Below are positions 41,228 to 58,910 of a DNA stretch of 64,000 nt, in pieces. The first letter of the stretch is position 1, and each line of letters starts with the position of its first letter. This DNA is from Bacteroidota bacterium (GTDB lineage Bacteria; Bacteroidota; Rhodothermia; Rhodothermales; UBA10348). The notes beneath the pieces are model-generated. The model was not told where the DNA came from. It made no database searches and saw only the letters and a program-made list of their open reading frames with translations. The position numbers and the translations under genes were made by a program. The stretch spans positions 1 to 64,000 of the forward strand of contig JADFHF010000015.1 of NCBI GenBank assembly GCA_022567305.1. Reading direction: 5' to 3'.

Positions 41228-41230
41228 AGA

Positions 41231-41784: not shown

Positions 41785-42354
41785 CTAGAAACCGAACTTT
41801 TCTCGAACGATTTTCAACATGTCTTCGTCGACTATCGTAGCATCGTTCGCTTTTGCATAGTCTTCGATGCCTCGTTCAACCATCGGCCGAATGAAAGAAG
41901 GAATGCGGTCCATTCGCTCTTCAGCTTCTGGCGTCCAATGCAGGCCTTGAAGGCTCCCGTTGGATTCGGTCGACCCCTCAGGGTCTGTGGAATCTGCGAA
42001 ATCTGTGGCATCTTCGGGGCCGGCAACCATGGCCGAGAACGGACAGCCGCCCGATGAATTTTCCTTTGCGGATAAGGCGGTGGATGACTTGGTGGATGAT
42101 TCGATGTCAGCATGGGCTCCCTGATGACCGATCAGCGAAGAGCTTATCGTTTCCATCGGCGGGGCCTCTTCCGTCGCACCGCCAATTTTCACGCCCAGCG
42201 AGTGCACCATCTGGGTTTCCATGGAATTTGTGAGCATCGCGATCTCGCGGCCACAAGTTCCACATCCAAACACGACCGTTAACGATCCATTGTCGGGTCC
42301 AGAGGTACTCTTTAAAGCCATCGGCTCGTCGCAGTCCACACAAAGAAATTTCAT
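41785..42354 (-). CDS. Zn-ribbon (CxxC...CxxC) + PCP_red-like (BchB C-terminal-like) domain protein
   Basis: 189 aa. N-terminal CVDCDEPM...CGTCGREI. The C-terminal LHWTPEAEERMDRIPSFIRPMVERGIEDYAKANDATIVDEDML closely matches the ChlB/BchB C-terminal consensus WTxEAE...IPFFVRGK...IT.E.L. Confidence 0.5.
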   Translation of the reverse strand: MKFLCVDCDEPMALKSTSGPDNGSLTVVFGCGTCGREIAMLTNSMETQMVHSLGVKIGGATEEAPPMETISSSLIGHQGAHADIESSTKSSTALSAKENSSGGCPFSAMVAGPEDATDFADSTDPEGSTESNGSLQGLHWTPEAEERMDRIPSFIRPMVERGIEDYAKANDATIVDEDMLKIVREKFGF

Positions 42355-43343
42355 GTTGCTTCCTTTACTGTTACTTCCTTCACAGGTCCGTTCTCCACAG
42401 TTGCAGTCTCTATAGTCGCCTTCTCTACGTTCGCGACCCCCACAACGGTCGCTGTTCGTTTAGATTTTCCCAGAAGATTGCATAATTCTAGAGCGGTGGC
42501 TCGAAGAGCACCTGCAGCAGGTCGATCCGGGTACATGGTCAAATACGGATTTCCACTGTCGGTTTCCTCGCCGAGTCTGGGGTCGAATGGTATTCTTCCA
42601 AGTAGCTGCACACCGTCCTCGCTCAGCAATTCGTTTGAACCGGGATCCTGAAACAGGTGATGAACGGTGTCACACGCGTCACAGACAAATTCCGTCATGT
42701 TCTCCACCAGCCCGATGGGTCGGTCGTCCACGTGACGCCGCGCAAGCAAAATCGATTTTCGGACCACATAGGTTGAAGCTCTCGAAGGCACACTGACGAC
42801 GACTGCACATGACAGTGTAGGAACCAGGTCCAGCAGATTGGGAAGTCGGTCTGTTCCGGGGGGCAAGTCTACGAGGAGAATGTCCAGACCATCCCAGACG
42901 GTATCCGCTAGCATTTCTCTTATGGCAGCTACTTCAACCATACCGCGCCACGTGAATGCGCTGCGCTGCGTTTCCGCTTCCCATTCTACCGGAATACCCT
43001 CCTTCAGAAACAAGTCGATCGACATGACCTGGACTCCACCATGCGATACGGAAGGAGCAATTCCATCGTCGGTCCGCTCAGGGTTTCGGGCAACGCCGGT
43101 CATTTTTACGACTGACGCTCCATTGATATCCGCATCAACGATGCCTACTCGCCAACCGGTCTCGGTAAGTGCGGTCGCCAGGTTCACCGTCAACAAACTT
43201 TTCCCAACGCCACCTTTTCCACTCATCACCGCGACCACATAGTCAATCTGATCCAGACGGTGGCGCAGTTTCCGTTCCTGTTCCTGGACCTGCCCCGCGA
43301 CGTTGGAGCCACCGTCAGTAAGAATGTCGTGATAGGTCTTCAA
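42351..43343 (-). CDS. apbC: Mrp/NBP35-family ATPase (Fe-S cluster carrier, ApbC-like)
   Basis: 330 aa with deviant Walker A VMSGKGGVGKS and a C-terminal Cys pair CDACD. Confidence 0.75.
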   Translation of the reverse strand: MKTYHDILTDGGSNVAGQVQEQERKLRHRLDQIDYVVAVMSGKGGVGKSLLTVNLATALTETGWRVGIVDADINGASVVKMTGVARNPERTDDGIAPSVSHGGVQVMSIDLFLKEGIPVEWEAETQRSAFTWRGMVEVAAIREMLADTVWDGLDILLVDLPPGTDRLPNLLDLVPTLSCAVVVSVPSRASTYVVRKSILLARRHVDDRPIGLVENMTEFVCDACDTVHHLFQDPGSNELLSEDGVQLLGRIPFDPRLGEETDSGNPYLTMYPDRPAAGALRATALELCNLLGKSKRTATVVGVANVEKATIETATVENGPVKEVTVKEAT

Positions 43344-43361
43344 CGATTTGCTGGTACCGTA

Positions 43362-45305
43362 CTACTCTTGTTTCCCGTTCTTCTTGCCGTTCTGCTTTTT
43401 GATCATGTCCTCCATCACTTTCATGCCCACCTTGATGCCTTCCTCTACGATTTCGAGATCGATCAAATCTGACTTCCTGGATGCGGCACCCGTTTCAATT
43501 CTCTTTTTGGTAGCGGTTCGCATAAATCCCTCCGGGACTCGATTGAGCCGCTCGACTGCGGCCGGCGTCCAGGAATACTTACCGTCTCGAATGTTCTGCG
43601 CTCGGCTCTTTACGTCGGGCTGTGGTCCATCGACGGCGCGCTGACCCAGTTTCCCTCGATCTTCGAGGTTTTCTGTAGCGGCTTCCGTTTTTCCAACCAC
43701 ATCTTCAACCATGTCTTTCGTAATCAGGAATATTTTCCGGACGCGAGCGCGCTTTTCAATCTGTGCCTTTGCTCGACGCCGCTTATATCCGTCCGAAAGA
43801 GTTTTTACCAGCATCCGAGCATCGTCCGTCCATTTGATCTTGACGTTGTCGAAGGCCTTTTCTTCGTGAATGGCGCCTTCCAGCGGCGCGAGTTTCTCAA
43901 TCGCGTCCCGGTCCAACTTCTGGATCTGATCCGGCGGGGCATTACAAACCGTGCATTTAGTGGGCTCGAAGCCGCGCCCAACCCAGCCGCACTTCTGACA
44001 GACATAGACCGACGTGTTCTCCTCTCCGATTTTTTTGGTGGCAAGGTCTTCCGAAATGATACCCATAGCCTTCATCGACGACTTGGGAAGAATGGTCGAA
44101 AGAGCGCCTTCCAAAACAGATGTGGTGATGACGGAGTGTCCACGCTCCATCGCCCATCGATGCACAATGGTGCGGGCAATTCCTTTCGCGAAATCAGGGG
44201 CCTTGTCGAGTATCCGCTGCGCCTCTTCTACCCAGATCATAGATTCCTCAGCCTTGACGTCCACGTCCGGTGAAAATCTCTTGCTCGATAGAAGGACATT
44301 GCAGGGGACCAGGCGAAGCAAATTTTCTGTGTTACTTCCGACGTCCATCGATTCATCGCTATGAACACCGATCCGGCCCATCACGAGCATCCAGGGCCGC
44401 TCGCGCCGGACGTATTCCAGAATTTTCTCAAACGCCTTGCCGTCCAAGAGTGTGATCTTGAGATCGACATCCTCGTCTGCAGCGATACGCCGGGATACTT
44501 CCAGGTGCGACTGGTAGATTTTGGCGAGGCCCGTATCGATGACGTCCTCGTGGAGCTGCTCTTGCTCTTCGAACTTGAATACCTTGGACGCCTTTTCCGT
44601 GAGAACACCCACCAGGCTGTTGAACATCGCGTAATGGAGGTACGGATCGTAAACCGAAATTGCCTCTACCGGTTTATCGAGCGCCTTACCGAGCTTGATG
44701 GCGGATTTCAGTCCTGCGTAGGCTTCCGGGCTTCCGTCGATAGCAACGACAATCCCACCGCCGTCCTTATGCTGAACACCGTTTGAACCGGTCGACAACT
44801 GATCTTCAATCGGCGCCGTATTTTTGATAACGATCGTGTCGGTGCGCGTTCGTCGGACCACCCGCTCGCACACGCTCCCGATCTGGCTATCGCGTACAGC
44901 CCCGAGACCCAGAGCGCCCATGATGACCAGGTCGTAATCGTTACTGTTTATGTCGTCTGCGATGACCTCAAAATTCTTTCCGTCGTACAACTTCGGTTCA
45001 AACTGGAGATTGGCTTCGACCGCCTGCTTATGCATGACCGTCAAGTAAGAATCAGAAATCAGCTCTAGACCCATCGTAATGAGTGAATCATGGATCTTGC
45101 GCTGCTTCTCCATCTCCGCTTCGACCAGGTATTCCTCGGGGAGAGTGAATTCCATCTGCTTGAATCGGTAGTCGTGAAGCCGGGCAGCATAGGCGTGGCT
45201 CCCCACGAGGGTCGCGCCAAACTGGCCCGCTAGATGAACGGCAAGTTCAATGGAGGCTCTGGAGTGGTCAGAATTGTCAACGGGGACAAATATTTTCTCG
45301 TACAT
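43362..45305 (-). CDS. Multidomain protein: two universal-stress-protein (UspA) domains + PCP_red-like domain + rubredoxin-like Zn ribbon + two further PCP_red-like domains
   Basis: 647 aa. The USP-like halves contain IFVPVDNSDHSRASIELAV...VIMGALG and GIVVAIDGSPEA...LVMGRIG. The PCP_red-like segments are WVEEAQRILDKAPDFAKGIARTIVHRWAMERGHSVITTSV, KIKWTDDARMLVKTLSDGYKRRRAKAQIEKRARVRKIFLITKDMVED and KYSWTPAAVERLNRVPEGFMRTATKKRIE. The Zn ribbon is CQKCGW...CTVC. Confidence 0.55.
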   Translation of the reverse strand: MYEKIFVPVDNSDHSRASIELAVHLAGQFGATLVGSHAYAARLHDYRFKQMEFTLPEEYLVEAEMEKQRKIHDSLITMGLELISDSYLTVMHKQAVEANLQFEPKLYDGKNFEVIADDINSNDYDLVIMGALGLGAVRDSQIGSVCERVVRRTRTDTIVIKNTAPIEDQLSTGSNGVQHKDGGGIVVAIDGSPEAYAGLKSAIKLGKALDKPVEAISVYDPYLHYAMFNSLVGVLTEKASKVFKFEEQEQLHEDVIDTGLAKIYQSHLEVSRRIAADEDVDLKITLLDGKAFEKILEYVRRERPWMLVMGRIGVHSDESMDVGSNTENLLRLVPCNVLLSSKRFSPDVDVKAEESMIWVEEAQRILDKAPDFAKGIARTIVHRWAMERGHSVITTSVLEGALSTILPKSSMKAMGIISEDLATKKIGEENTSVYVCQKCGWVGRGFEPTKCTVCNAPPDQIQKLDRDAIEKLAPLEGAIHEEKAFDNVKIKWTDDARMLVKTLSDGYKRRRAKAQIEKRARVRKIFLITKDMVEDVVGKTEAATENLEDRGKLGQRAVDGPQPDVKSRAQNIRDGKYSWTPAAVERLNRVPEGFMRTATKKRIETGAASRKSDLIDLEIVEEGIKVGMKVMEDMIKKQNGKKNGKQE

Positions 45306-45341
45306 AGTGGAATTTTAAGGTGGAATGTCTCTGTTCGGCTG

Positions 45342-45719
45342 TCACCGTAGCCGCTTCATCTGGGCAAGAATATAACCGAGGCGGTCGGCAACATATACCA
45401 TGGTGTCCCGGGTTGTTTCCGTAGTCTCTGAATCGGGAAATGACAGACAAACAATGGCCGCATCCAGGTGCTCGAAGCTCCGCGCATCCACGTCTCGATT
45501 CAGCTCGTCATGAAATAACGACAGGTGGTGACGCACGGTCACGAGCGTTGTATGGATATCGGATCCGGGTTCGATGTCATGAAGCATGTCGCCCAAACGT
45601 GAGATTTCAAGCTGTACGATGGCCGGTCCCATTTGAACAAATTCGTCGCGCTCGATAAAGTGAATCTCGTTCAGTCTTTCGTATCGCCTGGACCTGGTAT
45701 GCTGCACGGGTGATGTCAT
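45342..45719 (-). CDS. Hypothetical protein (His/Glu-rich, possibly hemerythrin-like; weak)
   Basis: 125-aa ORF 1 nt downstream of the 198-aa ORF. HHLSLFHDELNRD and HDIEPGSDIH are faintly reminiscent of HHE cation-binding motifs. Confidence 0.3.
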   Translation of the reverse strand: MTSPVQHTRSRRYERLNEIHFIERDEFVQMGPAIVQLEISRLGDMLHDIEPGSDIHTTLVTVRHHLSLFHDELNRDVDARSFEHLDAAIVCLSFPDSETTETTRDTMVYVADRLGYILAQMKRLR

Positions 45720-45720
45720 G

Positions 45721-46317
45721 TCAACTCACCGCTATACCGACTGCGACGTGTGACTGTCGATTCTCCCACATCTGCCAGAGGCTGCCCATACGGCGTCTGA
45801 ACTCGGCTGGATCCTGCTGGATGGTGTCGAACGAGAACTCAGGAAGCAAGAGCTCCAACCGTTCGATCATTTCGTCTTCTAGAATCCACCCATGCTCTAA
45901 ATAGTCCAGTACAACCTTATAGTCGAGTTCCCCGCCGCGTGCCACGCAACGATAGCTAACCGAATACGGGTCGAAGTGAAGCACGACGAGTGGGAGATCG
46001 AATGGCCAATGGGCATCGGCCACGGCTCGATGTCTCGCCGCATAACCATCGGGCAAAGGAATCACTTCTCCTGGAAATTCATCCGAAACTTTAATACCCA
46101 TTTGACCCGCCACCTGGACCACCGCCCGATTGAAGGGATTTCGATCCACTAAATCCACGGATGAGCAGAATTCAAGTCGATCCGTAAACCTGCGCAAACC
46201 CTCCACGACGAGCGAGGTCTCCCCCACCAGATAGATCGTTCCAGATCCTGAAAAGACGGCACCAATCTCGCGAAAGAAACGAACGATCATCGCTTGATTG
46301 ATCAGTTGAATCGCCAT
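45721..46317 (-). CDS. Hypothetical protein
   Basis: 198-aa ORF 4 nt downstream of the ferredoxin gene. No confident family was recognised. Confidence 0.3.
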   Translation of the reverse strand: MAIQLINQAMIVRFFREIGAVFSGSGTIYLVGETSLVVEGLRRFTDRLEFCSSVDLVDRNPFNRAVVQVAGQMGIKVSDEFPGEVIPLPDGYAARHRAVADAHWPFDLPLVVLHFDPYSVSYRCVARGGELDYKVVLDYLEHGWILEDEMIERLELLLPEFSFDTIQQDPAEFRRRMGSLWQMWENRQSHVAVGIAVS

Positions 46318-46321
46318 GGCT

Positions 46322-46615
46322 TTATTCGAGTGACTTGTTCACTAGTTCGTTCTCGATGTCTTCCGGTGCAGCGTCTTCCGGTACATGGTCGTTCAATACA
46401 TGGTCGTTCAGTACATCGTCGCTCGGTACATCGTCGTTCGGTACATCGTCCTCATGCACGATCGCGTCTTCGGGACACACGGCGACGCATTCCTGAAACT
46501 CGCAACAGGTATCATCGATGACATAGATGGGATCTCCCACGCTGATGGCTTCGATCGGACATTCGTCCAGACAGAGTCCGCACGTATTACAGGTATCGAG
46601 GATGACGTAGGCCAT
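46322..46615 (-). CDS. 2x[4Fe-4S] ferredoxin with C-terminal acidic pentapeptide-repeat tail
   Basis: 97 aa with CNTCGLCLDECP and CCEFQECVAVCP. The tail DDVPNDDVPSDDVLNDHVLNDHVPED is encoded by a 15-bp tandem DNA repeat. Confidence 0.7.
   Translation of the reverse strand: MAYVILDTCNTCGLCLDECPIEAISVGDPIYVIDDTCCEFQECVAVCPEDAIVHEDDVPNDDVPSDDVLNDHVLNDHVPEDAAPEDIENELVNKSLE
46378..46455. repeat. 15-bp tandem repeat x about 5 (catggtcgttcaata-like units) inside the ferredoxin gene
   Basis: Units catggtcgttcaata / catggtcgttcagta / catcgtcgctcggta / catcgtcgttcggta / catcgtcctcatgca are visible directly. They stay in frame, encoding a 5-aa period. Confidence 0.6.
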
Positions 46616-46655
46616 AGTTCGAAACGCACAAAAAGTGCAGAAAGTGCGACGTCAG

Positions 46656-47462
46656 CTAGGCTTTGTGGTCGATCTGCCCCTTCCCCTCGTTAACGGTGTT
46701 GTCACTCCGCTTTCCCGGATACCGTCTTATCGGTGTTTTATTCTTGAAACCGTTTACCCAGAAGCAATACGCATACGGGTACATGGTCTGGACGACATGA
46801 AACGGTTCGTACTCAAATAGTCTACGCATGGCCCACGCAAATCGATATCTGAGATCTTCTGGAGTTATGATCTCCACGATACAATCCACTTGGTAACTAA
46901 AAAACACGGGCGAGTTGCCTGTCCAGAGAACCGATGCCATCGGATTTTCCTTCAGGTTATTGAAGGTCGTACCCTCAAAAATTTCCAGGAGCGCCAGGCG
47001 TCGCCAGTCAAGGTGATCCGGGTTCGAATAGATTTCTCTCGCCGTATTGACGCGTAACGACCGAGTTTCGTGAACGGCGTGGGGAGGCAGTTTTTCTATT
47101 TCCGAGACCGCGCTCTCAACCAGGTTCAGGTAGTGTTCCAGGTATTCATTGCGAGGCGTAAATCCAATTCCCTTGTTGGCGAGATTGAGGAAGTGTCCGT
47201 CAGCGGACCATGTTCCGACAACCGGCAGGTGGCCGACGTTAAATGCGATATACTCATTTTTTTCGATGGAATCGTATATACTGTGCTTCATATCCAGTTG
47301 CCAGCGAACGAATTCATCGGGGAGCTCCTGGATCTGAAAATCCTGCGATACACCATCCGTATGGACGCTTACCGTGTTTCCATCAATGGTCACGCGATCC
47401 AATAATTCTTGACCGTTGGTGGTTGAAACGTCTGCTGCGACTACGTCGATTGATTCTGCCAT
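46656..47462 (-). CDS. Hypothetical protein
   Basis: 268-aa ORF between the radical SAM and ferredoxin genes. No family was recognised. Confidence 0.35.
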   Translation of the reverse strand: MAESIDVVAADVSTTNGQELLDRVTIDGNTVSVHTDGVSQDFQIQELPDEFVRWQLDMKHSIYDSIEKNEYIAFNVGHLPVVGTWSADGHFLNLANKGIGFTPRNEYLEHYLNLVESAVSEIEKLPPHAVHETRSLRVNTAREIYSNPDHLDWRRLALLEIFEGTTFNNLKENPMASVLWTGNSPVFFSYQVDCIVEIITPEDLRYRFAWAMRRLFEYEPFHVVQTMYPYAYCFWVNGFKNKTPIRRYPGKRSDNTVNEGKGQIDHKA

Positions 47463-47502
47463 GGTTGTTTTTCTGCTTCGGAAACTGAATGATTCTGCGA
47501 AA

Positions 47503-48756
47503 TTATGATTTGCTCGGTGGTGTTTTGAATAGACTCGCGCCTACCATCTGCCCAAATCCACTTCTTTTACTGCCAGCCATAGCCCGATCCATATCGTCTG
47601 ACGTGATTACTCGGAGGCCATGTCTCGCACCATAGGCCCTCAATCCTTTCTTGACCTTACTGCGGATGAACTCAATGGGGATCCTCTCCATTCGATGGAG
47701 AACGGGATCCGAGAATATAATCTCGGATGATTCGGGAAGCGTAATTTTTCCGGGCTGATACGTACACGCCGGATCTTCGGCCAGGTAATCGCCTTCGGCT
47801 GAAAAGGCTCTACAACGACATCCGCCACAAAGCTCCTTGAACTCACAGGCGCCACAGCGTCCTTTCAAGAGAGACAAATCCCTAAGCTCTGTGAATACGT
47901 GTGACGAATTCCAGATCTGCGTAAACCCTTCGTCGCGCACATTCCCGGCTACCACATCCATATACGGGCACGGCGTTACGTTCCCTTCCGGTGTAATTCG
48001 GCAATATTCTGTGGCTGCCATGCACCCACCACTTTCCAGGCCTCCTTTGCCCATTTCGTAAGAGATCTGCTTAAACTGCGGGGCGCATTTGGCGCGGACG
48101 AGCATGGGCGCATAGTCTTCCTGGGATTCGACCAGTTGCCTCAGGCAATCCTCGGTCTCCTGGGGTGTGAGATCGTTCATTTCAAGCCCCCTTCCCGTGC
48201 GCACCAGGAAGTACAGGTTAAACGACCAGGCATCACGGTCCTTCGCAAATTGGATGAGGTCGCCGATTTCGTCCATATTCTCGCGGGTAACGGTCGACTG
48301 GACCAGCACTTCCATTCCGTGCTCCCTGCAGATCTCGAGGGCGCGAACGGAATACTTCCACGCATCCGGGCCTCCACGGAATGCGTTGTGGGTCTCCGGG
48401 TCGACCGAATCGATACTGATCCCCACTCCCTTGACTCCGCACTCCACCATTTTGGCGGCTACGTGTTCGTTCACGAGTACGCCGTTGGTTCCCATCACGA
48501 CCCAGATGCCTTTCGACGAGGCACATGATGCGATATCGTAAATATCTCGGCGGAGAAGCGGTTCGCCGCCGGTCAGGATCAGCATCTCCGTGCCCAGCGA
48601 ATGCATCTCATCTACCAGGCGAAGACACTCGTCGGTGGTTAGTTCATCCTCAGCGCTGTCTCCGGCATCCAGATAGCAGTGCGGACACGCCAGATTACAT
48701 TTCTTGGTGAGATTCCACGAAACGAGCGAGGGGCGGTATGTCTGCAGCGTTTCGAT
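47503..48756 (-). CDS. Radical SAM / SPASM-domain enzyme with C-terminal PCP_red-like domain; no canonical start codon upstream of the CxxxCxxC motif
   Basis: The ORF-track version starts at ATG 48606 (MHSLGTEMLILTGGEPLL). The same frame stays open 58 codons upstream and contains the radical-SAM cluster motif CNLACPHCY. SPASM Cys motifs read CGACEFKELCGGCRCRA. The C-terminal PVLHRMERIPIEFIRSKVKKGLRAYGARHGLRVITSDDMDRA is PCP_red-like. The only start candidate is ATC, overlapping the upstream gene's TAA (TAATC). Confidence 0.6.
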   Translation of the reverse strand: METLQTYRPSLVSWNLTKKCNLACPHCYLDAGDSAEDELTTDECLRLVDEMHSLGTEMLILTGGEPLLRRDIYDIASCASSKGIWVVMGTNGVLVNEHVAAKMVECGVKGVGISIDSVDPETHNAFRGGPDAWKYSVRALEICREHGMEVLVQSTVTRENMDEIGDLIQFAKDRDAWSFNLYFLVRTGRGLEMNDLTPQETEDCLRQLVESQEDYAPMLVRAKCAPQFKQISYEMGKGGLESGGCMAATEYCRITPEGNVTPCPYMDVVAGNVRDEGFTQIWNSSHVFTELRDLSLLKGRCGACEFKELCGGCRCRAFSAEGDYLAEDPACTYQPGKITLPESSEIIFSDPVLHRMERIPIEFIRSKVKKGLRAYGARHGLRVITSDDMDRAMAGSKRSGFGQMVGASLFKTPPSKS

Positions 48757-51106: not shown

Positions 51107-51916
51107 CTAGTTACCCTGTTGATCTGCGAGATAGTTGACGAGCGCCCGAAGCTCCTCAGGAGACACCTTTTGATAGAATCCGAGGGCATTTAACGTGGTC
51201 AGCATGACACCGCCCGGAAATCCTTCTGCCAGTGTAGCATCGGGCTCCATCACCGCCTCATAGATTTCCGCCTTGGAAAGCCTGGATCCAACGTCAAATA
51301 AACTGGGACCCACCAATGGGTCGGGTGAATCTATGGAGTGGCACGTGTTACACAAGTACGTCGTAAAAACGCCCGGCCCGTCTAGACCGGCGCCGAGGGT
51401 AGCTCCTCCGGAAGGAGCCGGAGCAATCGCTGAGACTTCAGTTACGTATCCCACATCGGTGGCGAGCGTCACGGAAGGCGTCCCTCCCAGGCTTTGGAGG
51501 TAGGCGATGACTGCTTTGATCTCGTCGTCAGTCAATCCAATAGGAGGCCGGTTTATGGCCGGCATTCCCGCAAGAAAGCCATCCACAATGAACTCATTGG
51601 GCTCATAAAGAGAGTGAGCCAGGTATTCCAACGCTGACATCCCGGCAATTCGGGTCGAGGCTTTGGTAGCGATTCCTCCCAGGTCTGGGAAGCGAAGGCC
51701 CGAATCTCGTGATCCTACCGTATGGCATCCGAGGCAAGTACCTTTCCCCGCGACAATGTCCGCTCCGGCAATCGCGAGTTCATCAGGCGTCATGTCCGCA
51801 GAGAGGTCTGCGGACTCAGGTGGATACGTAATTTTCTGAGGTACGGTATTGCCTACATAGCTGTAAAAAGCCAGCACGACGATCACGAATCCGAATATTT
51901 TCAATGAAGATTTCAT
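51107..51916 (-). CDS. Dihaem c-type cytochrome, N-terminal TM anchor
   Basis: 269 aa with CLGCHT and CNTCHS. Confidence 0.6.
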   Translation of the reverse strand: MKSSLKIFGFVIVVLAFYSYVGNTVPQKITYPPESADLSADMTPDELAIAGADIVAGKGTCLGCHTVGSRDSGLRFPDLGGIATKASTRIAGMSALEYLAHSLYEPNEFIVDGFLAGMPAINRPPIGLTDDEIKAVIAYLQSLGGTPSVTLATDVGYVTEVSAIAPAPSGGATLGAGLDGPGVFTTYLCNTCHSIDSPDPLVGPSLFDVGSRLSKAEIYEAVMEPDATLAEGFPGGVMLTTLNALGFYQKVSPEELRALVNYLADQQGN

Positions 51917-53811
51917 TCGGGTGCCTCCACTGCTCGTTCGGTACCAACTGATTCTGCAGATCTTACTGCATCAACCGCTTTCGGCTCCCACGGCTTTTTG
52001 CCGGACAATCCGGACAGCCAGAAGACAATCGAAATGAATAAGAAAAAAATTAGTACGGTTACTGAAATCACATTTGATGCAAACCCGAGCGTGGGAGTGA
52101 ACGCATCGGGCGACGTGTCCTGCAAGACGCCGAACACATGCCAGTGCTGCCGCATACCGGCTCTCACGTAGCCCATCAGGCCCATGGTCCAGGCAAACGT
52201 CAGGGCAATGAAAAACAACGCGTATTGGGCTCGATCGGGCATCTGACCCCATTTGATCTCACCCGTCTTCTTGGCGTTTTTGAACATGAAAATGTCAATC
52301 GCGGTGACGGATATCATGGCCGTCAGCACCGCCAACACCTGCGGAACGGAGAGTGCGATCCTCACGCGTGCCTCCACGAAGTATCCGTACACACCGAGGA
52401 AAATGACGAAGAGAATCGTTACTGCGAAGATGGCAAACTGAACACGGTTTCCCGTTTTTGCCCACGGAACGATCGCTTCCTTATTTCCGCGTCTATATAA
52501 AAGGAAGCTGATGTAGGTCGTCAATATCATCACGTTCACGGCCGTATTCTTGGCCGACATGACCCCCAGCACACCCAGCATCGGGTGGTGGGCGCCGCCC
52601 ATCTGACGTGCTTCTTCGACCGTGGCCACCAGCGAATGCGGGGTCGCCCACACGATGAACGTGATCGTAACGGATGCCAGCAAGTATTTAATGAAGCGCC
52701 GGAATCGCTCGGCCCCTTCAATGCGCTCCATACTGACCCAGAGATAGTAATTCGCCGCGAGAAAGAGATTCCCGATCAGAATCGCCTGGATGATAAACAG
52801 CCAGGAAAACGTCCCACCCATGAGCGTGATGCCCAGACTTTGAGAGTAGGCATAGATTTCCTTCCCTAAATAATACCCGGCGAACGGGAGCGGGAGAAGC
52901 GCACTGATCGCAATAAAGTTGCCGATGTAGCCCATCCAGTCATAATGCGCTTTCTCTTCCTCTGTCTTGGCTCCGAGGAACTTGTAGGCGCCGTAGGCCG
53001 CAGCAATCGAACCACCGAACGCCATATTGGCGATGAGGCGGTGGATATTGATGGGCATCCAGATGAAATTGTTGATGGCATCCGGCAGGCTAACGAGCGC
53101 CCCCGTCTCCGAAATTCCATTCGGTGTGTTCATAAACGTCAGCCATGCATCCGCGATGAACATGATTGCCGTTCCAACAATGTTCAGACAGACCCCCAGG
53201 GCTAGGTGAACCTTCGGAGAGAATTTTCCCCATCCGTAGTAGTAGCTGTACAGGAACAACGCCTCTAGGAAAAAGAGAAATACATACGGGAAAAAGGTCC
53301 AGCTGAATATCGAGACCATGTAGGTGGCCACACGCGGATAGAGAATGAAGAGCATAAACGTCAACATCGCTCCAAGCGTCGCCGTAAAGGAGAACGAAAC
53401 GGAGAGGAGTTTCGTGAATTCGTACGCCAGATCGTCATAACGCTTGTCTTTCGTCACGTACCCGATGATTTCGATAATCAGTGCGAACATCGGGACGGCA
53501 AGAACAAACGCGGCAAACATCAGGTGCAGCTGGGCAACCACCCACATGGCTACGCGACTACCGACGATAGGGAACGGCCGATAGTCGGGATTGGCCGCAT
53601 CCTGAAGGGCTTCCTGCGGAGACGCCCCGGCGGGGAGAGCAAGGATACCAACGATCGCCACGGCCAACAGAATCGCGGCGCAGATGGGCAGATAGCATAG
53701 GCGGAACGGATGCCGATTTCGGGGCCGCAGCTCCGTGGGTTCCCACGGACGTTCATTGACGGAACTTGACTTCCAGGGGTTGAAAAGCTTGCGGAGCCGG
53801 GTCTCGGGCAT
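51913..53811 (-). CDS. Cytochrome bd ubiquinol oxidase subunit I (CydA) homolog, standalone (no cydB)
   Basis: 632 aa, polytopic. VAQLHLMFAAF...FTKLL..SFSFTATLGAML and FLEALFLYSYYYGWGKFSPKVHLALGVCLNIVGTAIMFIADAWLTFMNTP align with the E. coli CydA helices (AMYHFLF..., [50 protein letters not shown]). The Q-loop-like motif reads RAGMRQHWHVFG. Confidence 0.55.
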   Translation of the reverse strand: MPETRLRKLFNPWKSSSVNERPWEPTELRPRNRHPFRLCYLPICAAILLAVAIVGILALPAGASPQEALQDAANPDYRPFPIVGSRVAMWVVAQLHLMFAAFVLAVPMFALIIEIIGYVTKDKRYDDLAYEFTKLLSVSFSFTATLGAMLTFMLFILYPRVATYMVSIFSWTFFPYVFLFFLEALFLYSYYYGWGKFSPKVHLALGVCLNIVGTAIMFIADAWLTFMNTPNGISETGALVSLPDAINNFIWMPINIHRLIANMAFGGSIAAAYGAYKFLGAKTEEEKAHYDWMGYIGNFIAISALLPLPFAGYYLGKEIYAYSQSLGITLMGGTFSWLFIIQAILIGNLFLAANYYLWVSMERIEGAERFRRFIKYLLASVTITFIVWATPHSLVATVEEARQMGGAHHPMLGVLGVMSAKNTAVNVMILTTYISFLLYRRGNKEAIVPWAKTGNRVQFAIFAVTILFVIFLGVYGYFVEARVRIALSVPQVLAVLTAMISVTAIDIFMFKNAKKTGEIKWGQMPDRAQYALFFIALTFAWTMGLMGYVRAGMRQHWHVFGVLQDTSPDAFTPTLGFASNVISVTVLIFFLFISIVFWLSGLSGKKPWEPKAVDAVRSAESVGTERAVEAPE

Positions 53812-53813
53812 GT

Positions 53814-54575
53814 TTAGAAGTCTAGTTCAGACATATCCTGGAGCCATGTTTCCAATTCGTCTGGCGACTCGACCGTCACAAAGCCGCGCATTCGATAATG
53901 GCTAAGACCGCACAACTGCGCGCATGCGATTTCGTATTCACCTGCTTTGATTGCCGTAAACCAAATCGGGATGGCGATGCCCGGAACAACATCCTGTTTG
54001 ATTCGAAGCTGCGGTACACCAAAACTATGAATGACATCCTTGGATGTCAGTGTGATTACGATCGGTCTATTGATCGGAAGGTGCAATTCATTAATCGTTA
54101 CGACGTCGTCGGCCGATGCCGGATCGTCTGGGTCCAATCCGATTGGATTGGATAGAACATCGATAAGATGAATATCCCGCGCCCCAAACGTACCATCGGC
54201 GCCCGGATAATGGACGTTCCATGCAAACTGTTCAGCGATGACGTTGACCTCAAAAGACTCTTCTGCAGACGGAAACTCATTCTTGAGCACACCCCAGATC
54301 GGAAACGCAAATCCAACAAGCAAGACCGCCTCCGCCAGAATGACAGCGGTCTCTTGAACCTTCGAGTATTTGCCGACTGCCCCTTCGTAACTCGCAACAG
54401 GATTTTTCTTCGTCCGGAATCGGATCAGAACATAGATGAAATACACCCCCCAACCCACTAAAAGAAGGAGCATAAGCAAGTGAACCAGCGACATCATGTA
54501 ATCAATGTCTCCCGCATGCGCAGATGCCTGTTCCGGAAGACCCAAGGAACCACTGATATCAAGAAATTCTCTCAT
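53814..54575 (-). CDS. coxB: Cytochrome c oxidase subunit II (CuA)
   Basis: 253 aa with two TM helices, then INELHLPINRPIV...DVIHSFGVPQLRIKQDVVPG...CAQLCGLSHYRM (CuA ligands H, C, C, H, M). Confidence 0.8.
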   Translation of the reverse strand: MREFLDISGSLGLPEQASAHAGDIDYMMSLVHLLMLLLLVGWGVYFIYVLIRFRTKKNPVASYEGAVGKYSKVQETAVILAEAVLLVGFAFPIWGVLKNEFPSAEESFEVNVIAEQFAWNVHYPGADGTFGARDIHLIDVLSNPIGLDPDDPASADDVVTINELHLPINRPIVITLTSKDVIHSFGVPQLRIKQDVVPGIAIPIWFTAIKAGEYEIACAQLCGLSHYRMRGFVTVESPDELETWLQDMSELDF

Positions 54576-54594
54576 GATTGTCGAAAGCTAGATG

Positions 54595-54861
54595 TCATGC
54601 AGTCGTAGTGTCCGAAGATTCCCGCTCATCTTCTGCGATGGATCGAGAGCGATTGTGCGCCTGGTTGAAAAATGAAATAATGCCGGTGAATACGACACCG
54701 ATCATAGCCAGAAGTGCAAGCATAGAGATTCCAATCGCAGTGACGATCGGTGAATCCAACCCGGCTCCAAAACACCGTTCACATGCCAGGGTTACTTCTG
54801 GAAGAATCATCCATGCACCGACAAGTGCACTCGTTGACGCTATGTATCGCAGTGTTTTCAT
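54595..54861 (-). CDS. Small membrane protein (88 aa)
   Basis: Two predicted TM helices. It sits inside the cox cluster at tight spacing. Confidence 0.35.
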   Translation of the reverse strand: MKTLRYIASTSALVGAWMILPEVTLACERCFGAGLDSPIVTAIGISMLALLAMIGVVFTGIISFFNQAHNRSRSIAEDERESSDTTTA

Positions 54862-54865
54862 ATTC

Positions 54866-55063
54866 TCAAGTGGATCCGAGATGTTTCATTTTCTTCAGAA
54901 AACGCATCCCGTAAACGATTAAAAGGATTCCAGCCAACAGAGCCGCCAGTGTCCAAACGAATCGCATGGCGCCATCAACTTCCAAAAACGCATACACGCC
55001 CATTCCGAACGTCAATAGTGTGGAGACGGTGATGAATGCGATATGGAAGGCCTTAAGAGACAA
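54866..55063 (-). CDS. Small membrane protein (65 aa)
   Basis: Two predicted TM helices. It overlaps the coxD stop. Confidence 0.35.
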   Translation of the reverse strand: MSLKAFHIAFITVSTLLTFGMGVYAFLEVDGAMRFVWTLAALLAGILLIVYGMRFLKKMKHLGST

Positions 55064-55370
55064 GGTAGCCCCCCTCTTGGGAATTGTGCGCCCAGATGAA
55101 CAGCGTCAACATAATGAACAGGAAAACGGCCGAAGCAATCAATAGCCAGAAAATCAGCTTTTTCTCGGTGATCAGATGCATGAAATAGCTGCCCACCAGA
55201 CCACCCTTGACGCAGGCGATAAACAAAGCCACGATCATCGCCGGAACGATCGGCAACTTTAGATATCCCACCGACACCGTCACGATCGTTAATACCGCAA
55301 GCGATCCAAACACCATCATGTAAACACGAACGTGTTTACGAATTTCTTCGGGACTGTGTAATTCAGCCAT
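55053..55370 (-). CDS. Cytochrome c oxidase subunit IV (bacterial caa3-type CoxD)
   Basis: 105 aa with three TM helices. It lies immediately downstream of coxC, as in aa3/caa3 operons. Confidence 0.5.
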   Translation of the reverse strand: MAELHSPEEIRKHVRVYMMVFGSLAVLTIVTVSVGYLKLPIVPAMIVALFIACVKGGLVGSYFMHLITEKKLIFWLLIASAVFLFIMLTLFIWAHNSQEGGYLVS

Positions 55371-55373
55371 ATT

Positions 55374-55991
55374 CTAAAGCAGGTAGATGGTCGGGAAGAG
55401 AAAAATCCAAACGATGTCGACGAAGTGCCAATACAGACCCGCGACCTCAATGCGGTTAGTGAAGTACTTGGGATTGGTTTTCCAGAGTTTAGTGCCCGGA
55501 CCCAGAAAATACGAGTTTATGATAATCCCACCGATCACGTGCACGGCATGAAGACCCGTCAGGACAAAATAGATCCCCAGAAAGTTGGACTCACTCGGAA
55601 ACAACCCGTGCGAGAATTTAGACGTGTATTCGATACCTTTGATGATCAGAAAGCCAAACGCTAGCAAGATCGTCGCGCCCATAAACAGGCGGTACTTGTC
55701 GAAACGATTCATCATCAGAGACGCCCAGGCCATAACGATCGTAACGCTCGATCCAATCAGAATGAACGTATTCAGCGTTGCGAGGGGTACGCTCAGCACT
55801 TCCGACGCCCGCCCGTACATATGGCCGGCCATCATGCCCGGCCACTCGGGCGCGCCAATTCGCAGAAAAATGTACGCGGAGAAAAGACCTCCGAACAACA
55901 TGATCTCGGACGCCAAAAAGAGCCAAATTCCTAATTTGGCGTTATTCACACCGGTATCGGGTCTCGCTTCTACGGTATACGGTATATCCAT
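55374..55991 (-). CDS. coxC: Cytochrome c oxidase subunit III
   Basis: 205 aa with the C-terminal HFVDIVWIFLFPTIYLL signature. Confidence 0.8.
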   Translation of the reverse strand: MDIPYTVEARPDTGVNNAKLGIWLFLASEIMLFGGLFSAYIFLRIGAPEWPGMMAGHMYGRASEVLSVPLATLNTFILIGSSVTIVMAWASLMMNRFDKYRLFMGATILLAFGFLIIKGIEYTSKFSHGLFPSESNFLGIYFVLTGLHAVHVIGGIIINSYFLGPGTKLWKTNPKYFTNRIEVAGLYWHFVDIVWIFLFPTIYLL

Positions 55992-56003
55992 TTTAGATAG
56001 GAA

Positions 56004-57791
56004 TTACGGCTGGTTCTGTGGCGTGAAATCGGAATCGGAATCAGGTACGCTGTACTCGTACGGGCCCCGATAAACGGTCGGAACCGTTTCAAAATTTACA
56101 TGCGGAAGAGGAGGCGTGGGTGTGGCTGTCCACTCCAGTGTCGTGGCTTTCCACGGATTATCGTCCACTTCTTTCCCCTTCTTGATACTCAGGAAGAAGT
56201 TGATGAAAAACGGTATCTGAGCGAGAGCGAGCACCCACGCAAATATCGACATGAGTTCGTTGTACTGCACCACGTTCGCCGCGAAATCATACGTGGCTCC
56301 ACCGTCATAGAGACGACGGGAGACACCCGCCAGACCCTGAATGAACATCGGCATAAAGATGCCATTCATGCAGATGAACGTCCCCCAGAAGTGAATCCGA
56401 CCCCAAAAATCGTTGAGCTTTCGCCCGGTGACTTTCGGATACCAATAGTAGATGCCAGCGAAAAGGGCCAATATGGTTCCCGGAGCCACGATATAGTGAA
56501 AGTGCCCGATCACGTACATGGTATCATGCAGAGGAATATCCGTTGGCGCCAGGCCGAGTGGAAGGCCTGTAAGCCCTCCGATTCCAAACATGGGGAGGAA
56601 CGCCAAAGCGAACAACATCGGGGTCGTAAATCGCATCGATGCCCCCCACAGTGAAAGGAACAATCCCGAAAGAATGATGACTGACGGAATGGATATGATC
56701 ATCGTGGTCACCTGGAAGAAAGCTCCCATAGTCGTTCCCATTCCCGTGATGAACATGTGGTGGGCCCATACGATGAATGACATCGCTCCCAGGAAAAGGA
56801 GTGAATAGACCATCAACTTATATCCCCAGAGCGGTTTCCTCGTATTGTTCGCGATGATCTCGGCTACAATTCCCATTGCCGGAAGGATCAGAACGTAGAC
56901 TTCGGGGTGGGCGAGGAACCAGAATAAATGCTGCCACAAGAGCGGACTCCCCCCGCCAGCAATATCCAAAACCTGGCCACTCACGACGAGTCCGCTGGGC
57001 ATAAAGAAACTGGTCCCTATCAATCGGTCAGCGAGCTGAAGAAATGCGGCCGCCTCAAGCGGAGGAAAGGCCAGGAGTAGCAGAAAAGCCGTTACGAACT
57101 GCGCCCAGACAAAGAACGGCATCCTGAAATAGCTCATCCCGGGAGCTCGAAGCTGAATGATCGTCGTCAGAAAGTTCACCGCGCCGAGCAGGGACGATGT
57201 GATCAGGAACATCATGCCGATGAGCCACATAGTTTGGCCCATGGTCTCTATGTTGGCAAGGGGTGGATAGGATGTCCATCCCGCTTTGGCCGCGCCTGCC
57301 GGTACGAAGAAACTCGCCAGCATCACCACGCCGCCACAGAAATACACCCAATAGCTCGCCATGTTGAGCTTGGGAAACGCCATATCGGGCGCACCGATCT
57401 GAAGCGGAACGATGTAATTACCGAAAGCACCCACCGCAAGCGGAACCACACCCAGGAAGACCATAATGGTCCCGTGCATGGCACCGAGCTGATTGTAGAA
57501 CTCCGGCACCATCACTCCACCCGGCATGGTATCATCACTGAACAACCATCCGATCAGGGGTATCGGTTGGCCGGGATACGCCAGCTGCCACCTCATTAGC
57601 ATCATAAACGTGAAGCCAGTGAGTAAAAAAAACAGCGCCGTTAGGGCGTACTGGATGCCGATCATCTTGTGATCGGTCGCGAAGATGTATTTCCGCCAGA
57701 AAGGCTCTTCGTGATAACGATGAACGTCGTGAACCGACTCGTCGCCTCCACTAACAGAGTCGGTCATTTCGCGTTCAGTGCCGTAGGTCAT
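56004..57791 (-). CDS. coxA: Cytochrome c oxidase subunit I (heme-copper oxidase catalytic subunit)
   Basis: 595 aa with WAHHMF, HFHYIV and GGxTG motifs and 12+ TM helices. Confidence 0.9.
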   Translation of the reverse strand: MTYGTEREMTDSVSGGDESVHDVHRYHEEPFWRKYIFATDHKMIGIQYALTALFFLLTGFTFMMLMRWQLAYPGQPIPLIGWLFSDDTMPGGVMVPEFYNQLGAMHGTIMVFLGVVPLAVGAFGNYIVPLQIGAPDMAFPKLNMASYWVYFCGGVVMLASFFVPAGAAKAGWTSYPPLANIETMGQTMWLIGMMFLITSSLLGAVNFLTTIIQLRAPGMSYFRMPFFVWAQFVTAFLLLLAFPPLEAAAFLQLADRLIGTSFFMPSGLVVSGQVLDIAGGGSPLLWQHLFWFLAHPEVYVLILPAMGIVAEIIANNTRKPLWGYKLMVYSLLFLGAMSFIVWAHHMFITGMGTTMGAFFQVTTMIISIPSVIILSGLFLSLWGASMRFTTPMLFALAFLPMFGIGGLTGLPLGLAPTDIPLHDTMYVIGHFHYIVAPGTILALFAGIYYWYPKVTGRKLNDFWGRIHFWGTFICMNGIFMPMFIQGLAGVSRRLYDGGATYDFAANVVQYNELMSIFAWVLALAQIPFFINFFLSIKKGKEVDDNPWKATTLEWTATPTPPLPHVNFETVPTVYRGPYEYSVPDSDSDFTPQNQP

Positions 57792-57929
57792 ACTCGATTC
57801 GTTAGGTGCTCACTCCGGACGTCGAAAGCGATCATGTATAGTTTGCTTGCGCAGTCTGTCAAGGACAGCTGTGAAGTAGACATCGAGCTCGCGCAGTAGC
57901 GGCTCGGGTTGGGTGAACGAGCTAAAGCA

Positions 57930-58685
57930 CTATGAACCGAAAGAAAAGTCAACGGATACGGCTTCACCGTCTGTTACCGTGACCGTCTCTGTCGCAGTGC
58001 CGTACTTCTCGTGCCAGGCCTCAAATACGTACTCGCCAGCCGGCAGTTGGCCGATGGAAAAGCTTCCGGTATCGTCCGATACGGAATGGAACGGGTGATC
58101 AACAACTCCTGCATAGGCATTCATCCAGGCATGGACATCGCACTTAATCCGGAGCATTAATTCGGGTACACGGAAGGATCGCTCCCGTTCGTCGCCTTGA
58201 TTGGGCATCCCCATATTGAAAGGACGATTCTCGTTTGCGAGAGCATTGACGTTGTGCATCAAGGGATCACCATTGATAATTTTCAATGTCTGTCCGACCT
58301 GGATACCGAAAACGTGCGGTGTATAGACGCAGCCATCTTGATTAAAGACGACCGGTTCCGAGGGAATAGCGAAACTGTAATCGCCCAACCCTTCTTTTAC
58401 ATAAACGAATACATTGCGAAGGGTCCCATTATCATTCACAACAACTGACTCGTTCAGTACGGGATCGGCATTTAGTTCGGCACACTCTCGATCTTGACGA
58501 ATCCGATTCCTATCCGGCGCGGTGCCCGTAAAAGAAATCGAACCGGAAACGCTAGCCGATCCGAGCGGGGTCGTATCAGCGGTAGCAGCAGGTTCCGAAG
58601 ATGAATCCGAGCTGTCTGAACTGGAATCACCACCACAAGCTGAAAAGAGTAGAACAGCTGTTAGTAGAGTTAGAAATAAACGCAT
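57930..58685 (-). CDS. Cupredoxin-like (amicyanin/pseudoazurin-type) lipoprotein, first gene of the array
   Basis: The start is taken at MRLFLTLLTAVLLFSACGG (the ORF-track N-extension looks spurious). It has a Ser/Asp-rich linker, then YTPHVFGIQ...KCDVHAWMNAY. C-x2-H-x2-M plus an upstream His matches amicyanin CTPHPFM-type type-1 Cu ligands. Confidence 0.45.
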   Translation of the reverse strand: MRLFLTLLTAVLLFSACGGDSSSDSSDSSSEPAATADTTPLGSASVSGSISFTGTAPDRNRIRQDRECAELNADPVLNESVVVNDNGTLRNVFVYVKEGLGDYSFAIPSEPVVFNQDGCVYTPHVFGIQVGQTLKIINGDPLMHNVNALANENRPFNMGMPNQGDERERSFRVPELMLRIKCDVHAWMNAYAGVVDHPFHSVSDDTGSFSIGQLPAGEYVFEAWHEKYGTATETVTVTDGEAVSVDFSFGS

Positions 58686-58910
58686 AAAACTTGATAATAT
58701 TGGTAAGAAATAATCGACTTTTTTGCCTGCAAGAACTGGTTCTGGATTCAGGCTCGACGAAAATATATAAATTGAGCCAAAGGAGCAACGACCCGAAATC
58801 GCTACGAATCTCCCAGCCACCGAATCCATTGATACTTGGGAAAAAGCTCTACTCCCTCGTACATTGGACCGGTCTTCCAAGGCCTCTCTGAAGCATTATC
58901 TGGCGCATAT

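Follow-up and report, generated by a model that had tools for sequence, protein, structure and literature searches.

A bd-like cytochrome module joined to an aa3-type oxidase operon and a radical-SAM accessory gene set in a Rhodothermales-like bacterium

The DNA analysed here (the window) is a stretch of 64,000 nucleotides (nt) from a Bacteroidota bacterium placed in the Rhodothermales, positions 1 to 64,000 of contig JADFHF010000015.1 (GenBank assembly GCA_022567305.1). On its minus strand, a densely packed gene array brings together a haem-copper oxidase, a membrane protein resembling CydA of cytochrome bd, three cytochromes c and a set of radical S-adenosylmethionine (radical-SAM), iron-sulphur (Fe-S) and USP genes. 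An earlier reading made from the sequence alone (hereafter the sequence-only reading) did not recognise this arrangement. The locus raises the question of which system these genes encode, and of what the oxidase and the accessory genes have to do with it. We found that the core of the array is a known, unsolved system, and that the first observation was essentially right and its interpretation partly right. What appears to be new is the embedding of this core with an aa3 operon, an accessory module that accompanies it across phyla, and its occurrence in a cultured heterotroph.

The system in question, known as the bd-like/alt-NxrC module, has been a problem since the first Nitrospira and Kuenenia genomes; both its reaction (O2 reduction, quinone coupling or anchoring of NXR) and its cofactors are at issue. 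Nitrite oxidisers, anammox bacteria and Mn oxidisers express it at high levels. The results below show it to be widespread in heterotrophs of at least five phyla, sometimes inside an aa3 operon and almost always joined by AhbD/NirJ-like radical-SAM, PCP_red, USP and Mrp proteins. This linkage and these partners give concrete hypotheses on the cofactor chemistry and the partners of the module. Moreover, one carrier, Rhodocaloribacter litoris, is cultured and fast-growing and is tractable, unlike slow nitrifiers or anammox enrichments.

The bd-like core and its published counterparts

The listing of open reading frames (ORFs) and the table of gaps showed 19 consecutive minus-strand ORFs in an unbroken chain from 58685 to 41785 (g01-g19, Table 1). 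The 17-kb co-directional array described before is thus present, with 19 genes instead of 21. Three modules can be distinguished: g01-g07 (module A), g08-g11 (module B, the core) and g12-g19 (module C). Pfam and NCBIfam agreed on the presence of a bd-type subunit lacking CydB, three c-cytochromes, a radical-SAM protein, a ferredoxin and Mrp, Usp and PCP_red proteins, as had been proposed.

The CydA-like core protein, g08, matches the Cyt_bd_oxida_I profile with residues 85-322 only, corresponding to profile positions 2-240 of 418. Alignments to CydA chains in the PDB span residues 79-320 and stop near residue 320. In this part the equivalents of H19, E107 and H186 are H96, E183 and H257, which are invariant in the family, and the position of E99 is occupied by a tyrosine (Y176). 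The equivalents of M393 and E445 could not be placed with confidence in the alignment to solved CydA chains. Neither the Q-loop/quinol-binding region nor the full 9-helix CydA profile was found in g08, and none of the 19 products matched Cyt_bd_oxida_II (CydB). The protein thus shares with canonical CydAB the homologous N-terminal helices and the three residues named above (240/418 Pfam profile positions matched), and differs from it by the tyrosine, the missing quinol site and CydB, five extra helices and three cytochrome c subunits.

An AlphaFold2 model of g08 had 14 long helices, in agreement with a hydropathy scan, at moderate confidence (predicted local distance difference test (pLDDT) 63.6, predicted template modelling score 0.59). 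When this model was compared to the PDB with Foldseek, 10 significant matches (E <= 0.001) were obtained, all to CydA-type subunit-I chains; a solved structure of the g08 family was not found in the PDB. Nine histidines are invariant among 42 members of the family. Of these, H392, H408/H409 (in GGAHHP) and H556/H558 (in RQHWHV) are predicted to face the periplasm when the positive-inside rule is applied to the modelled helices. Both His-rich loops have a pLDDT <50, and no conclusions on metal sites were drawn from the model. The loops (residues 392-409 and 556-558) recall motifs of haem-copper oxidase subunit I, HH and HxH. A relationship of g08 to that subunit, considered on account of these motifs, was rejected: the Foldseek comparison of the model with the PDB showed no resemblance.

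More than 7,600 homologues of g08 were found, with 70-86% identity across phyla. The labels of the metagenome-assembled genomes (MAGs) that carry them include Rhodothermales, Calditrichia, KSB1, Fibrobacteres, Gemmatimonadaceae/Latescibacteria and others. Some homologues have been called as putative fusions: in P0086 a COX4_pro domain precedes the bd-like part, and in P0105, P0111, P0119 and P0120 a cytochrome c domain is joined to it.

Several published families resemble this core. OR-N2 proteins have 14 helices, and their operons also encode several cytochromes c and a homologue of EbdC; the proteins were filed as oxygen reductases with cytochrome c as the likely, not established, donor (Murali, Gennis & Hemp, 10.1101/2021.01.16.426971). 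In the Mn oxidiser Ca. Manganitrophus, TO_1 is the most highly expressed oxidase-like cluster, and the haem-copper oxidase is weakly expressed (Yu & Leadbetter, 10.1101/2021.11.15.468770). Nitrospira, Nitrospina and anammox bacteria share a conserved combination of bd-like_3, alt_NxrC_2 and two membrane cytochromes c (PMC6606698, PMC3578206), and Cu and haem sites have been proposed for the Nitrospira bd-like oxidases (PMC6606698). The nxr cluster of Kuenenia, in which the module spans kustd1706-1713, contains kustd1712 (cydA-like), 1711 (dihaem), 1710 (monohaem), 1709 (dihaem) and kustd1706 (uspA-like) (PMC6423088). Finally, Lucker et al. listed cupredoxin-like and zinc-finger proteins in nxr clusters and suggested a role like that of alternative complex III (PMC3578206).

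The window agrees with these descriptions in several respects. As in the bd-like/alt-NxrC module, only the N-terminal part of g08 is CydA-like, a Q-loop is lacking, and the number of predicted helices is the one described for OR-N2 and TO_1 (about 14). The OR-N2 residue pattern (Y...E, YxY, H, H) corresponds to Y176/E183, Y190/Y192, H96, H202 and H257; all residues of the OR-N2 signature (Table S6 of Murali et al., with the equivalents of H19, H126 and H186) are invariant, as matched by pattern and not by reference alignment. The operon has the expected cytochromes, with two CxxCH motifs in g09, one in g10 and two plus an EB_dh domain in g11. The order bd-like, dihaem, monohaem, dihaem is that of Kuenenia, where a USP gene is also a neighbour, and cupredoxin, zinc-finger and uspA-like neighbours are likewise found in the clusters of nitrifiers and anammox bacteria. 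In contrast to the published module, the array lacks NXR and joins the core to an aa3 operon in a Rhodothermales-like heterotroph. It also adds several PCP_red proteins, an AhbD/NirJ-like radical-SAM protein, a split-barrel protein and an Mrp ATPase; for the clusters of nitrifiers and anammox bacteria we found no mention of these. Compared by gene order, residue pattern and published descriptions, the core appears to correspond to OR-N2/TO_1/bd-like plus alt-NxrC, and the arrangement first regarded as unrecognised is, for its bd-like protein and three cytochromes, this module; for the accessory set no description was found. The core can be read as a CydA-like haem protein that is probably wired to five c-haems and one periplasmic b-haem.

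Conservation of the array and its oxidase partner

The window proteins were mapped by tblastn on 80 loci from GTDB species representatives (numbered L001 onwards). These were the best-scoring of at least 576 loci, with a bias to close relatives, and some of the MAG labels are clearly unreliable. Acidobacteriota loci were viewed with a 10 kb flank.

The core g08-g11 was present in 77-79 of the 80 loci, from at least five phyla. A homologue of g12 or g17 was found in 59 of the 60 loci having at least 5 kb downstream, and g17 (USP-PCP_red) in 48 of the 51 with a full downstream flank. Loci in which modules B and C are linked span Rhodothermales/Bacteroidota, Calditrichota, Fibrobacterota, Acidobacteriota and Opitutales; from phylum to phylum the accessory genes are arranged differently, and their linkage to the core persists. 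This bears out the idea of a respiratory unit with cofactor-maturation-type genes of its own (radical-SAM, USP, PCP_red and Mrp). The search for synteny in relatives, which had been advised, recovered the full g01-g19 order in L016 and collinear, truncated versions in L001, L003-L007, L013, L015 and L021. The arrangement is far beyond chance: its gene order is met again in relatives, and core and accessory set occur together in several phyla.

The oxidase had been taken for a caa3 type. Subunit I has AHPEVY, subunits III and IV are present, and CoxB (253 aa) contains the CuA motif CAQLCGLSHYRM and neither CxxCH nor a cytochrome c Pfam match, the fused cytochrome c being the mark of caa3 oxidases. 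Because CoxB has CuA without haem c, the oxidase is, by its sequence features, an A-family aa3-type enzyme and not caa3; haem a cannot be distinguished from haem o or b in the sequence. Lacking a haem-c domain, CoxB would need an external electron donor.

The unusual gene order coxA-coxC-coxD-x-x-coxB was confirmed in the window. The same operon (50-68% identity) was linked to the bd-like cluster in three phyla and in two orientations. It adjoins the core in Rhodothermales and Opitutales, being upstream and co-directional in 6 of the 17 Rhodothermales-type loci with enough upstream flank and in all four (4/4) Verrucomicrobiota. In eight Acidobacteriota-type loci a coxB orthologue (48-58% identity) lies just past the accessory genes in convergent orientation. 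The cultured R. litoris has modules B and C without cox. The oxidase partner of the core is recurrent and lineage-specific, not universal; to this extent the linkage of the oxidase with the bd-type subunit was well observed, with its absence in R. litoris and an NXR-like enzyme in its place in one lineage.

That lineage is represented by two loci with identical DNA, labelled Gemmatimonadaceae and Latescibacteria, in which genes for an NxrA/NarG-like molybdoenzyme (1183 aa), an NxrB-like Fe-S protein, a NarJ-like chaperone and an NxrC-like cytochrome c/EB_dh protein lie directly upstream of the bd-like cluster (L082 2061-9863/L083 2025-9827). Their bd-like protein is 78% identical to g08 of the window. 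The core is thus found with aa3 (Rhodothermales, Opitutales, Acidobacteriota), with this NXR-like set, or alone (R. litoris). The label of this MAG is that of a non-nitrifier; from its genes it could belong to an unrecognised lineage that oxidises nitrite or reduces nitrate in the periplasm. In L082, furthermore, the g13 domain and PCP_red are fused to the USP protein in a single polypeptide of 1039 aa. In R. litoris (L081, CP076718.1, cluster at 728-750 kb) a gene for an IS605 OrfB/TnpB (Cas12f-like) protein (15447-16607 of L081) separates the third cytochrome gene from that of the radical-SAM protein. To judge from its position, this insertion could uncouple modules B and C transcriptionally.

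The description of the first gene of the array, g01, as a cupredoxin lipoprotein was supported. With the Met encoded at 58685 as start, the product has an LFSAC lipobox, and none of 23 homologues, which come from several phyla, deviates in the copper ligands H...C-D-x-H-x-x-M (MHN...KCDVHAWM). The His, Cys, His and Met ligands in C-x2-H-x2-M spacing are those of type-1 copper. No Pfam cupredoxin profile matched g01, and the assignment was made from the ligand pattern together with a weak alignment to the blue-copper protein 5fc9 in the PDB (E 0.075). The g01 family accompanies the bd-like cluster even where cox is absent, and g01 is probably a periplasmic electron carrier.

Table 1. Genes of the array and a candidate promoter in the window
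Feature	Description	Position	Strand	Evidence
g01	251-aa lipoprotein with type-1-copper (cupredoxin-like) ligands and C-terminal CarboxypepD_reg/transthyretin-like domain	57930..58685	-	LFSAC lipobox; CarboxypepD_reg Pfam E 1e-8
Promoter-like element	TTGACA-16 nt-TATACA, candidate only	57835..57862	-	Inside g01-coxA spacer; read from sequence; TTGACA perfect
g02, coxA	Haem-copper oxidase subunit I, A-family, HPEVY	56004..57791	-	COX1 E 1e-134; TIGR02891 578 bits vs cut-off 671
g03, coxC	Subunit III	55374..55991	-	COX3 E 7e-24
g04, coxD	Subunit IV	55053..55370	-	COX4_pro E 2.5e-11; TIGR02229 40.6 bits, above cut-off
g05	65 aa, two predicted membrane helices	54866..55063	-	No family match; tblastn matches in 11 related loci; conserved inside cox operon
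g06	88-aa membrane protein, CERC motif	54595..54861	-	No family match; matches in 8 related loci
g07, coxB	Subunit II, CuA site, no haem-c domain	53814..54575	-	COX2 E 2.7e-14; TIGR02866 142.7 bits
g08	632 aa, 14-helix CydA-like ('bd-like', OR-N2-type) membrane haem protein	51913..53811	-	Pfam Cyt_bd_oxida_I, N-terminal half only
g09	Membrane-anchored dihaem cytochrome c	51107..51916	-	Two CxxCH; Cytochrom_C E 2.6e-15; 79/80 loci
g10	Monohaem cytochrome c, three N-terminal membrane helices	50294..51106	-	One CxxCH, three hydrophobic segments; 77/80 loci
g11	Dihaem cytochrome c with EB_dh (EbdC/NxrC-like haem b) domain and C-terminal membrane anchor	48756..50297	-	Cytochrome_CBB3 and Cytochrom_C; EB_dh E 1.9e-13; TIGR03477 E 2e-19; 77/80 loci
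g12	Radical-SAM/SPASM protein, AhbD/NirJ2 clade, C-terminal PCP_red-like tail	47503..48756	-	NirJ2 276 bits, AhbD 267 bits, cut-offs 500; SPASM E 5.8e-11
g13	268-aa PNPOx-like split-barrel protein (flavin-/haem-binding fold)	46656..47462	-	Top structural match haem-binding HupZ; no known family
g14	Small 4Fe-4S ferredoxin, acidic tail	46322..46615	-	Fer4 matches; NF058577 E 8e-15
g15	198-aa cytoplasmic protein	45721..46317	-	No family match; 11 loci
g16	125-aa cytoplasmic protein	45342..45719	-	No family match; 22 loci
g17	Tandem Usp, PCP_red, rubredoxin-like CxxC...CxxC, second PCP_red	43362..45305	-	Usp E 6e-37; PCP_red E 7e-21, two stretches
g18	Mrp/NBP35-type Fe-S carrier P-loop ATPase, CDAC motif	42351..43343	-	ParA (NUBPL) E 7e-63; MrpORP 214 bits, below cut-off
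g19	Zn-ribbon (CxxC...CxxC) and PCP_red	41785..42354	-	PCP_red E 2.7e-12; 42/80 loci

From g01 to g19 the gaps are 138, 12, 3, -11, 4, 19, 2, -4, 0, -4, -1, 40, 40, 4, 1, 36, 18 and -4 nt. The spacing of 40 nt or less reported for the whole array holds for all gaps except one, the 138-nt spacer between g01 and coxA (57792-57929). The individual spacings quoted at the time were right: coxB/cydA-like 2 nt, cydA-like/dihaem -4, cyt c/cyt c 0, ferredoxin/198-aa 4, 198/125-aa 1 and Mrp/Zn-PCP_red -4 nt. Stop/start overlaps (ATGA, TAATC or 0 nt) are kept in relatives, including those of g08/g09 (-4), g09/g10 (0) and g10/g11 (-4). The coxB/g08 junction varies in relatives from a 4-nt overlap to about 100 nt. 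From this layout we infer co-transcription of the array.

The g01-coxA spacer is the largest gap of the array in relatives too (45-214 nt), which suggests a conserved internal regulatory region, and a promoter may be present within it before coxA. The candidate in Table 1 was not flagged in a scan for consensus promoters. Over 40.5-60 kb the counts of promoter and terminator consensus hits were at the level of shuffled sequence, and the scan was uninformative on internal signals; the promoters of this organism are probably Bacteroidota-like and do not follow the sigma-70 consensus. An Rfam scan of the whole window gave zero matches, neither riboswitch nor leader.

The accessory module

The radical-SAM gene g12 has an uncommon start. 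Its first ATG (48606) lies downstream of the in-frame CxxxCxxC motif (CNLACPHC), and upstream of this motif ATG, GTG and TTG are all absent. An ATC codon at 48756 overlaps the TAA stop of g11 (TAATC, 48754-48758, minus strand). Three relatives likewise have ATCGAA with an in-frame stop directly before it and no ATG, GTG or TTG (L002 4906, L003 5802, L004 7326), and more distant relatives start with ATG, GTG or TTG. The non-canonical ATC is probably the start of g12, being the sole plausible one. The overlap of cytochrome c and radical-SAM genes described earlier exists with this start and disappears with the first ATG. The homologue in R. litoris is full-length (427 aa).

Provided that the ATC start is used, g12 combines CxxxCxxC with a SPASM auxiliary-cluster domain, as do AhbD and NirJ/NirJ2, to whose hidden Markov models (HMMs) it matches best. 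Both scores are well below the NCBIfam equivalog cut-offs (276 and 267 vs 500 bits), and unlike these enzymes g12 has an extra PCP_red-like tail and lies in a respiratory cluster, not beside ahbABC or nir genes. By its HMM scores g12 is a member of a sister clade, not an AhbD or NirJ2 orthologue. NirJ2 and AhbD act on iron tetrapyrroles.

PCP_red is the C-terminal domain of BchB/ChlB of dark protochlorophyllide reductase. Its motif (W-x-x-E/A...R-x-P-x-F-x-R...E...A...G) occurs four times in module C, once in g12, twice in g17 and once in g19. In contrast to the reductase, module C has neither a BchN/BchB core nor a NifH-like BchL, and PCP_red is an appendage on radical-SAM, USP and Zn-ribbon proteins. 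In g17, of which more than 5,500 homologues were found, the ATP motif G-x2-G-x9-G-S is kept in both Usp domains. The module C proteins have no signal peptides or membrane helices and are cytoplasmic. A literature search on PF08369/PCP_red and on radical SAM with bd-like proteins found no description of the radical-SAM/PCP_red/Mrp/split-barrel set.

Possible roles of the complex and its accessory proteins

For the function of the complex, alternative complex III offers a comparison. Genes for alternative complex III adjoin those of caa3 oxidases in Rhodothermus marinus and Flavobacterium johnsoniae. This complex, too, is a membrane complex other than bc1 that contains multihaem c subunits, and its genes share one array with those for an A-family oxidase, again within the same bacterial group. 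In the window, on the other hand, the membrane subunit is CydA-like, the oxidase has no fused cytochrome c, and neither ActB (Fe-S/molybdopterin-like) nor NrfD-type ActC/ActF was found among the 19 products and in the flanks. The resemblance is functional only, by analogy, and quinol oxidation by the complex is a proposal.

The reading that we favour, tentatively and with somewhat less than even confidence, is that module B is a reversible hub between quinone and high-potential carriers which feeds the aa3 oxidase, and that module C serves O2-independent maturation of its tetrapyrrole and Fe-S cofactors. Module B (g08-g11 with g01) would connect the quinone pool reversibly with high-potential periplasmic carriers, the job of alternative complex III, and electrons would pass via its c-haems and the blue copper of g01 to CuA of the co-encoded aa3 oxidase (g02-g07). 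Module C would make or insert the tetrapyrrole and Fe-S cofactors of module B without O2: the ferredoxin g14 would reduce g12, the Mrp ATPase g18 would load Fe-S clusters, the four PCP_red domains would hold the tetrapyrrole, and the HupZ-like split barrel g13 and the tandem ATP-binding USP protein g17 would be further parts of the maturation apparatus. In a simpler variant, g12 would be an O2-independent coprohaem decarboxylase, supplying haem b for a haem-rich complex at low O2. Three elements of this scheme are conjectural: which way the electrons flow, the link to quinone and the radical-SAM chemistry. We favour the hub because it best accounts for the swapping of partners, for a module found also in anammox bacteria, which are strict anaerobes, for a CoxB without a cytochrome c domain and for the logic of complex III plus complex IV operons, which are common.

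Several points weigh against it. A quinol site could not be identified in g08 and the Q-loop is absent, as judged by profile and PDB alignments. The invariance of H96, which corresponds to the O2-site haem ligand H19, and of the E107 equivalent fits a catalytic oxidase better than a pure conduit. The score of g12 falls short of the AhbD and NirJ2 equivalog cut-offs and its best solved relatives are PqqE and SkfB; SPASM enzymes are often peptide modifiers, and the split-barrel fold of g13 binds FMN as often as haem. A promoter-like site precedes coxA, in an array whose co-transcription we infer only. The 80 loci are biased to close relatives, and the comparison with Nitrospira and Kuenenia was one of gene order, residue pattern and published descriptions. 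Furthermore, the family has been classed among the oxygen reductases (10.1101/2021.01.16.426971), and TO_1 is the top-expressed oxidase-like cluster of a Mn oxidiser (10.1101/2021.11.15.468770).

The last point leads to the main rival explanation, which is possible, if somewhat unlikely: module B would itself be a cytochrome c (or cupredoxin):O2 reductase, a high-affinity, bd-derived second terminal oxidase in parallel to the low-affinity aa3 enzyme, with module C still providing its maturation. What is conserved in g08 is the N-terminal four-helix bundle of CydA with the O2-reduction site, including H96, E183 and H257, and the five further invariant histidines predicted to face the periplasm (H392, H408/H409 and H556/H558) recall the Cu/haem sites of the Nitrospira bd-like proteins. 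The classification of OR-N2 by Murali et al., with cytochrome c as likely donor, and the very high expression of TO_1 together with the weak expression of the haem-copper oxidase point in the same direction, and catalytic core subunits typically show an identity as high as the 70-86% seen here between phyla. However, the E99 equivalent is a tyrosine, the E445 ligand is not recognisable, and the module is kept in the nxr cluster of strictly anaerobic anammox bacteria. Two translationally coupled terminal oxidases in one operon, with a 2-nt gap between them, would also be unusual, whereas operons of complex III with complex IV are not, and a maturase of the O2-labile radical-SAM type suggests that the complex is assembled where O2 is very low.

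A broader claim extends the hub, and we consider it decidedly doubtful. In that case the bd-like complex would be a third, so far unrecognised quinol:cytochrome c/cupredoxin oxidoreductase beside bc1 and alternative complex III, combining interchangeably with aa3 or NXR-type partners and needing a hitherto unknown modified haem or an O2-independent route of haem insertion. The AhbD/NirJ-like radical-SAM protein would furnish this route together with the PCP_red, USP, Mrp and split-barrel proteins, and its conservation would extend from Rhodothermales to Acidobacteriota and may include nitrite oxidisers and anammox bacteria.

It is improbable that module C has another task than tetrapyrrole maturation, either as a regulatory or stress (USP) module or in SPASM-type modification of a peptide or protein, such as g15 or g16, or of a subunit of the complex. 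According to the literature, USP proteins beside electron-transport operons rise at low O2 in Nitrospira marina. The closest solved relatives of g12 modify peptides, and g15 and g16 belong to no recognisable family. On the other hand, the HMM scores of g12 for NirJ2 and AhbD are about twice that for PqqE (127 bits), a domain of BchB is present four times in three module C proteins, and g13 has the fold common to the haem binders HupZ, HutZ and ChuZ. Moreover, g15 and g16 are the least conserved members of module C (11/80 and 22/80 loci), whereas a precursor peptide should stay with its maturase. The stress-responsive role put forward in the sequence-only reading was drawn solely from the name of the Usp domain and is not retained.

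Very improbable is a mere juxtaposition of independent co-directional operons (cupredoxin, cox, bd-like and accessory) with a functionally uncoupled oxidase: the limited occurrence of cox immediately upstream (6/17) and its absence in R. litoris, the TTGACA-16-TATACA element, the 36-40-nt gaps within module C, which could hold promoters, and the uninformative signal scans would allow it, but three phyla have this unusual cox operon linked to the bd-like cluster, in two orientations, the distance from the coxB stop to the bd-like start is 2 nt here and -4 to about 100 nt in relatives, and g01 lies upstream of cox here and is part of the bd-like cluster elsewhere, so that the oxidase genes are embedded within the bd-like system and not beside it.

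The array is not a genomic island, since its G + C content (0.49-0.55) is the same as that of the remaining window. An ORF following g19 (g20, 41224-41529, 101 aa) was rejected as a gene; it has no family match, no homologues in the loci and an odd composition. No genes for alternative complex III, bc1, ctaA/ctaB or SCO were found near the cluster in the window flanks, and the genes on either side (DoxX, sugar oxidoreductases, an ABC transporter, amidohydrolases and others) appear to have nothing to do with it. Upstream of the cluster and divergent from it are two genes for DoxX-family membrane proteins, at 58836-59690 and 60058-60504 on the plus strand; DoxX/DoxD proteins have a link to quinone in some organisms. 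Downstream, at a distance of 255 nt, lies a minus-strand gene (39047-41227) for a 726-aa multihaem cytochrome c with seven CxxCH motifs and a C-terminal TPR array.

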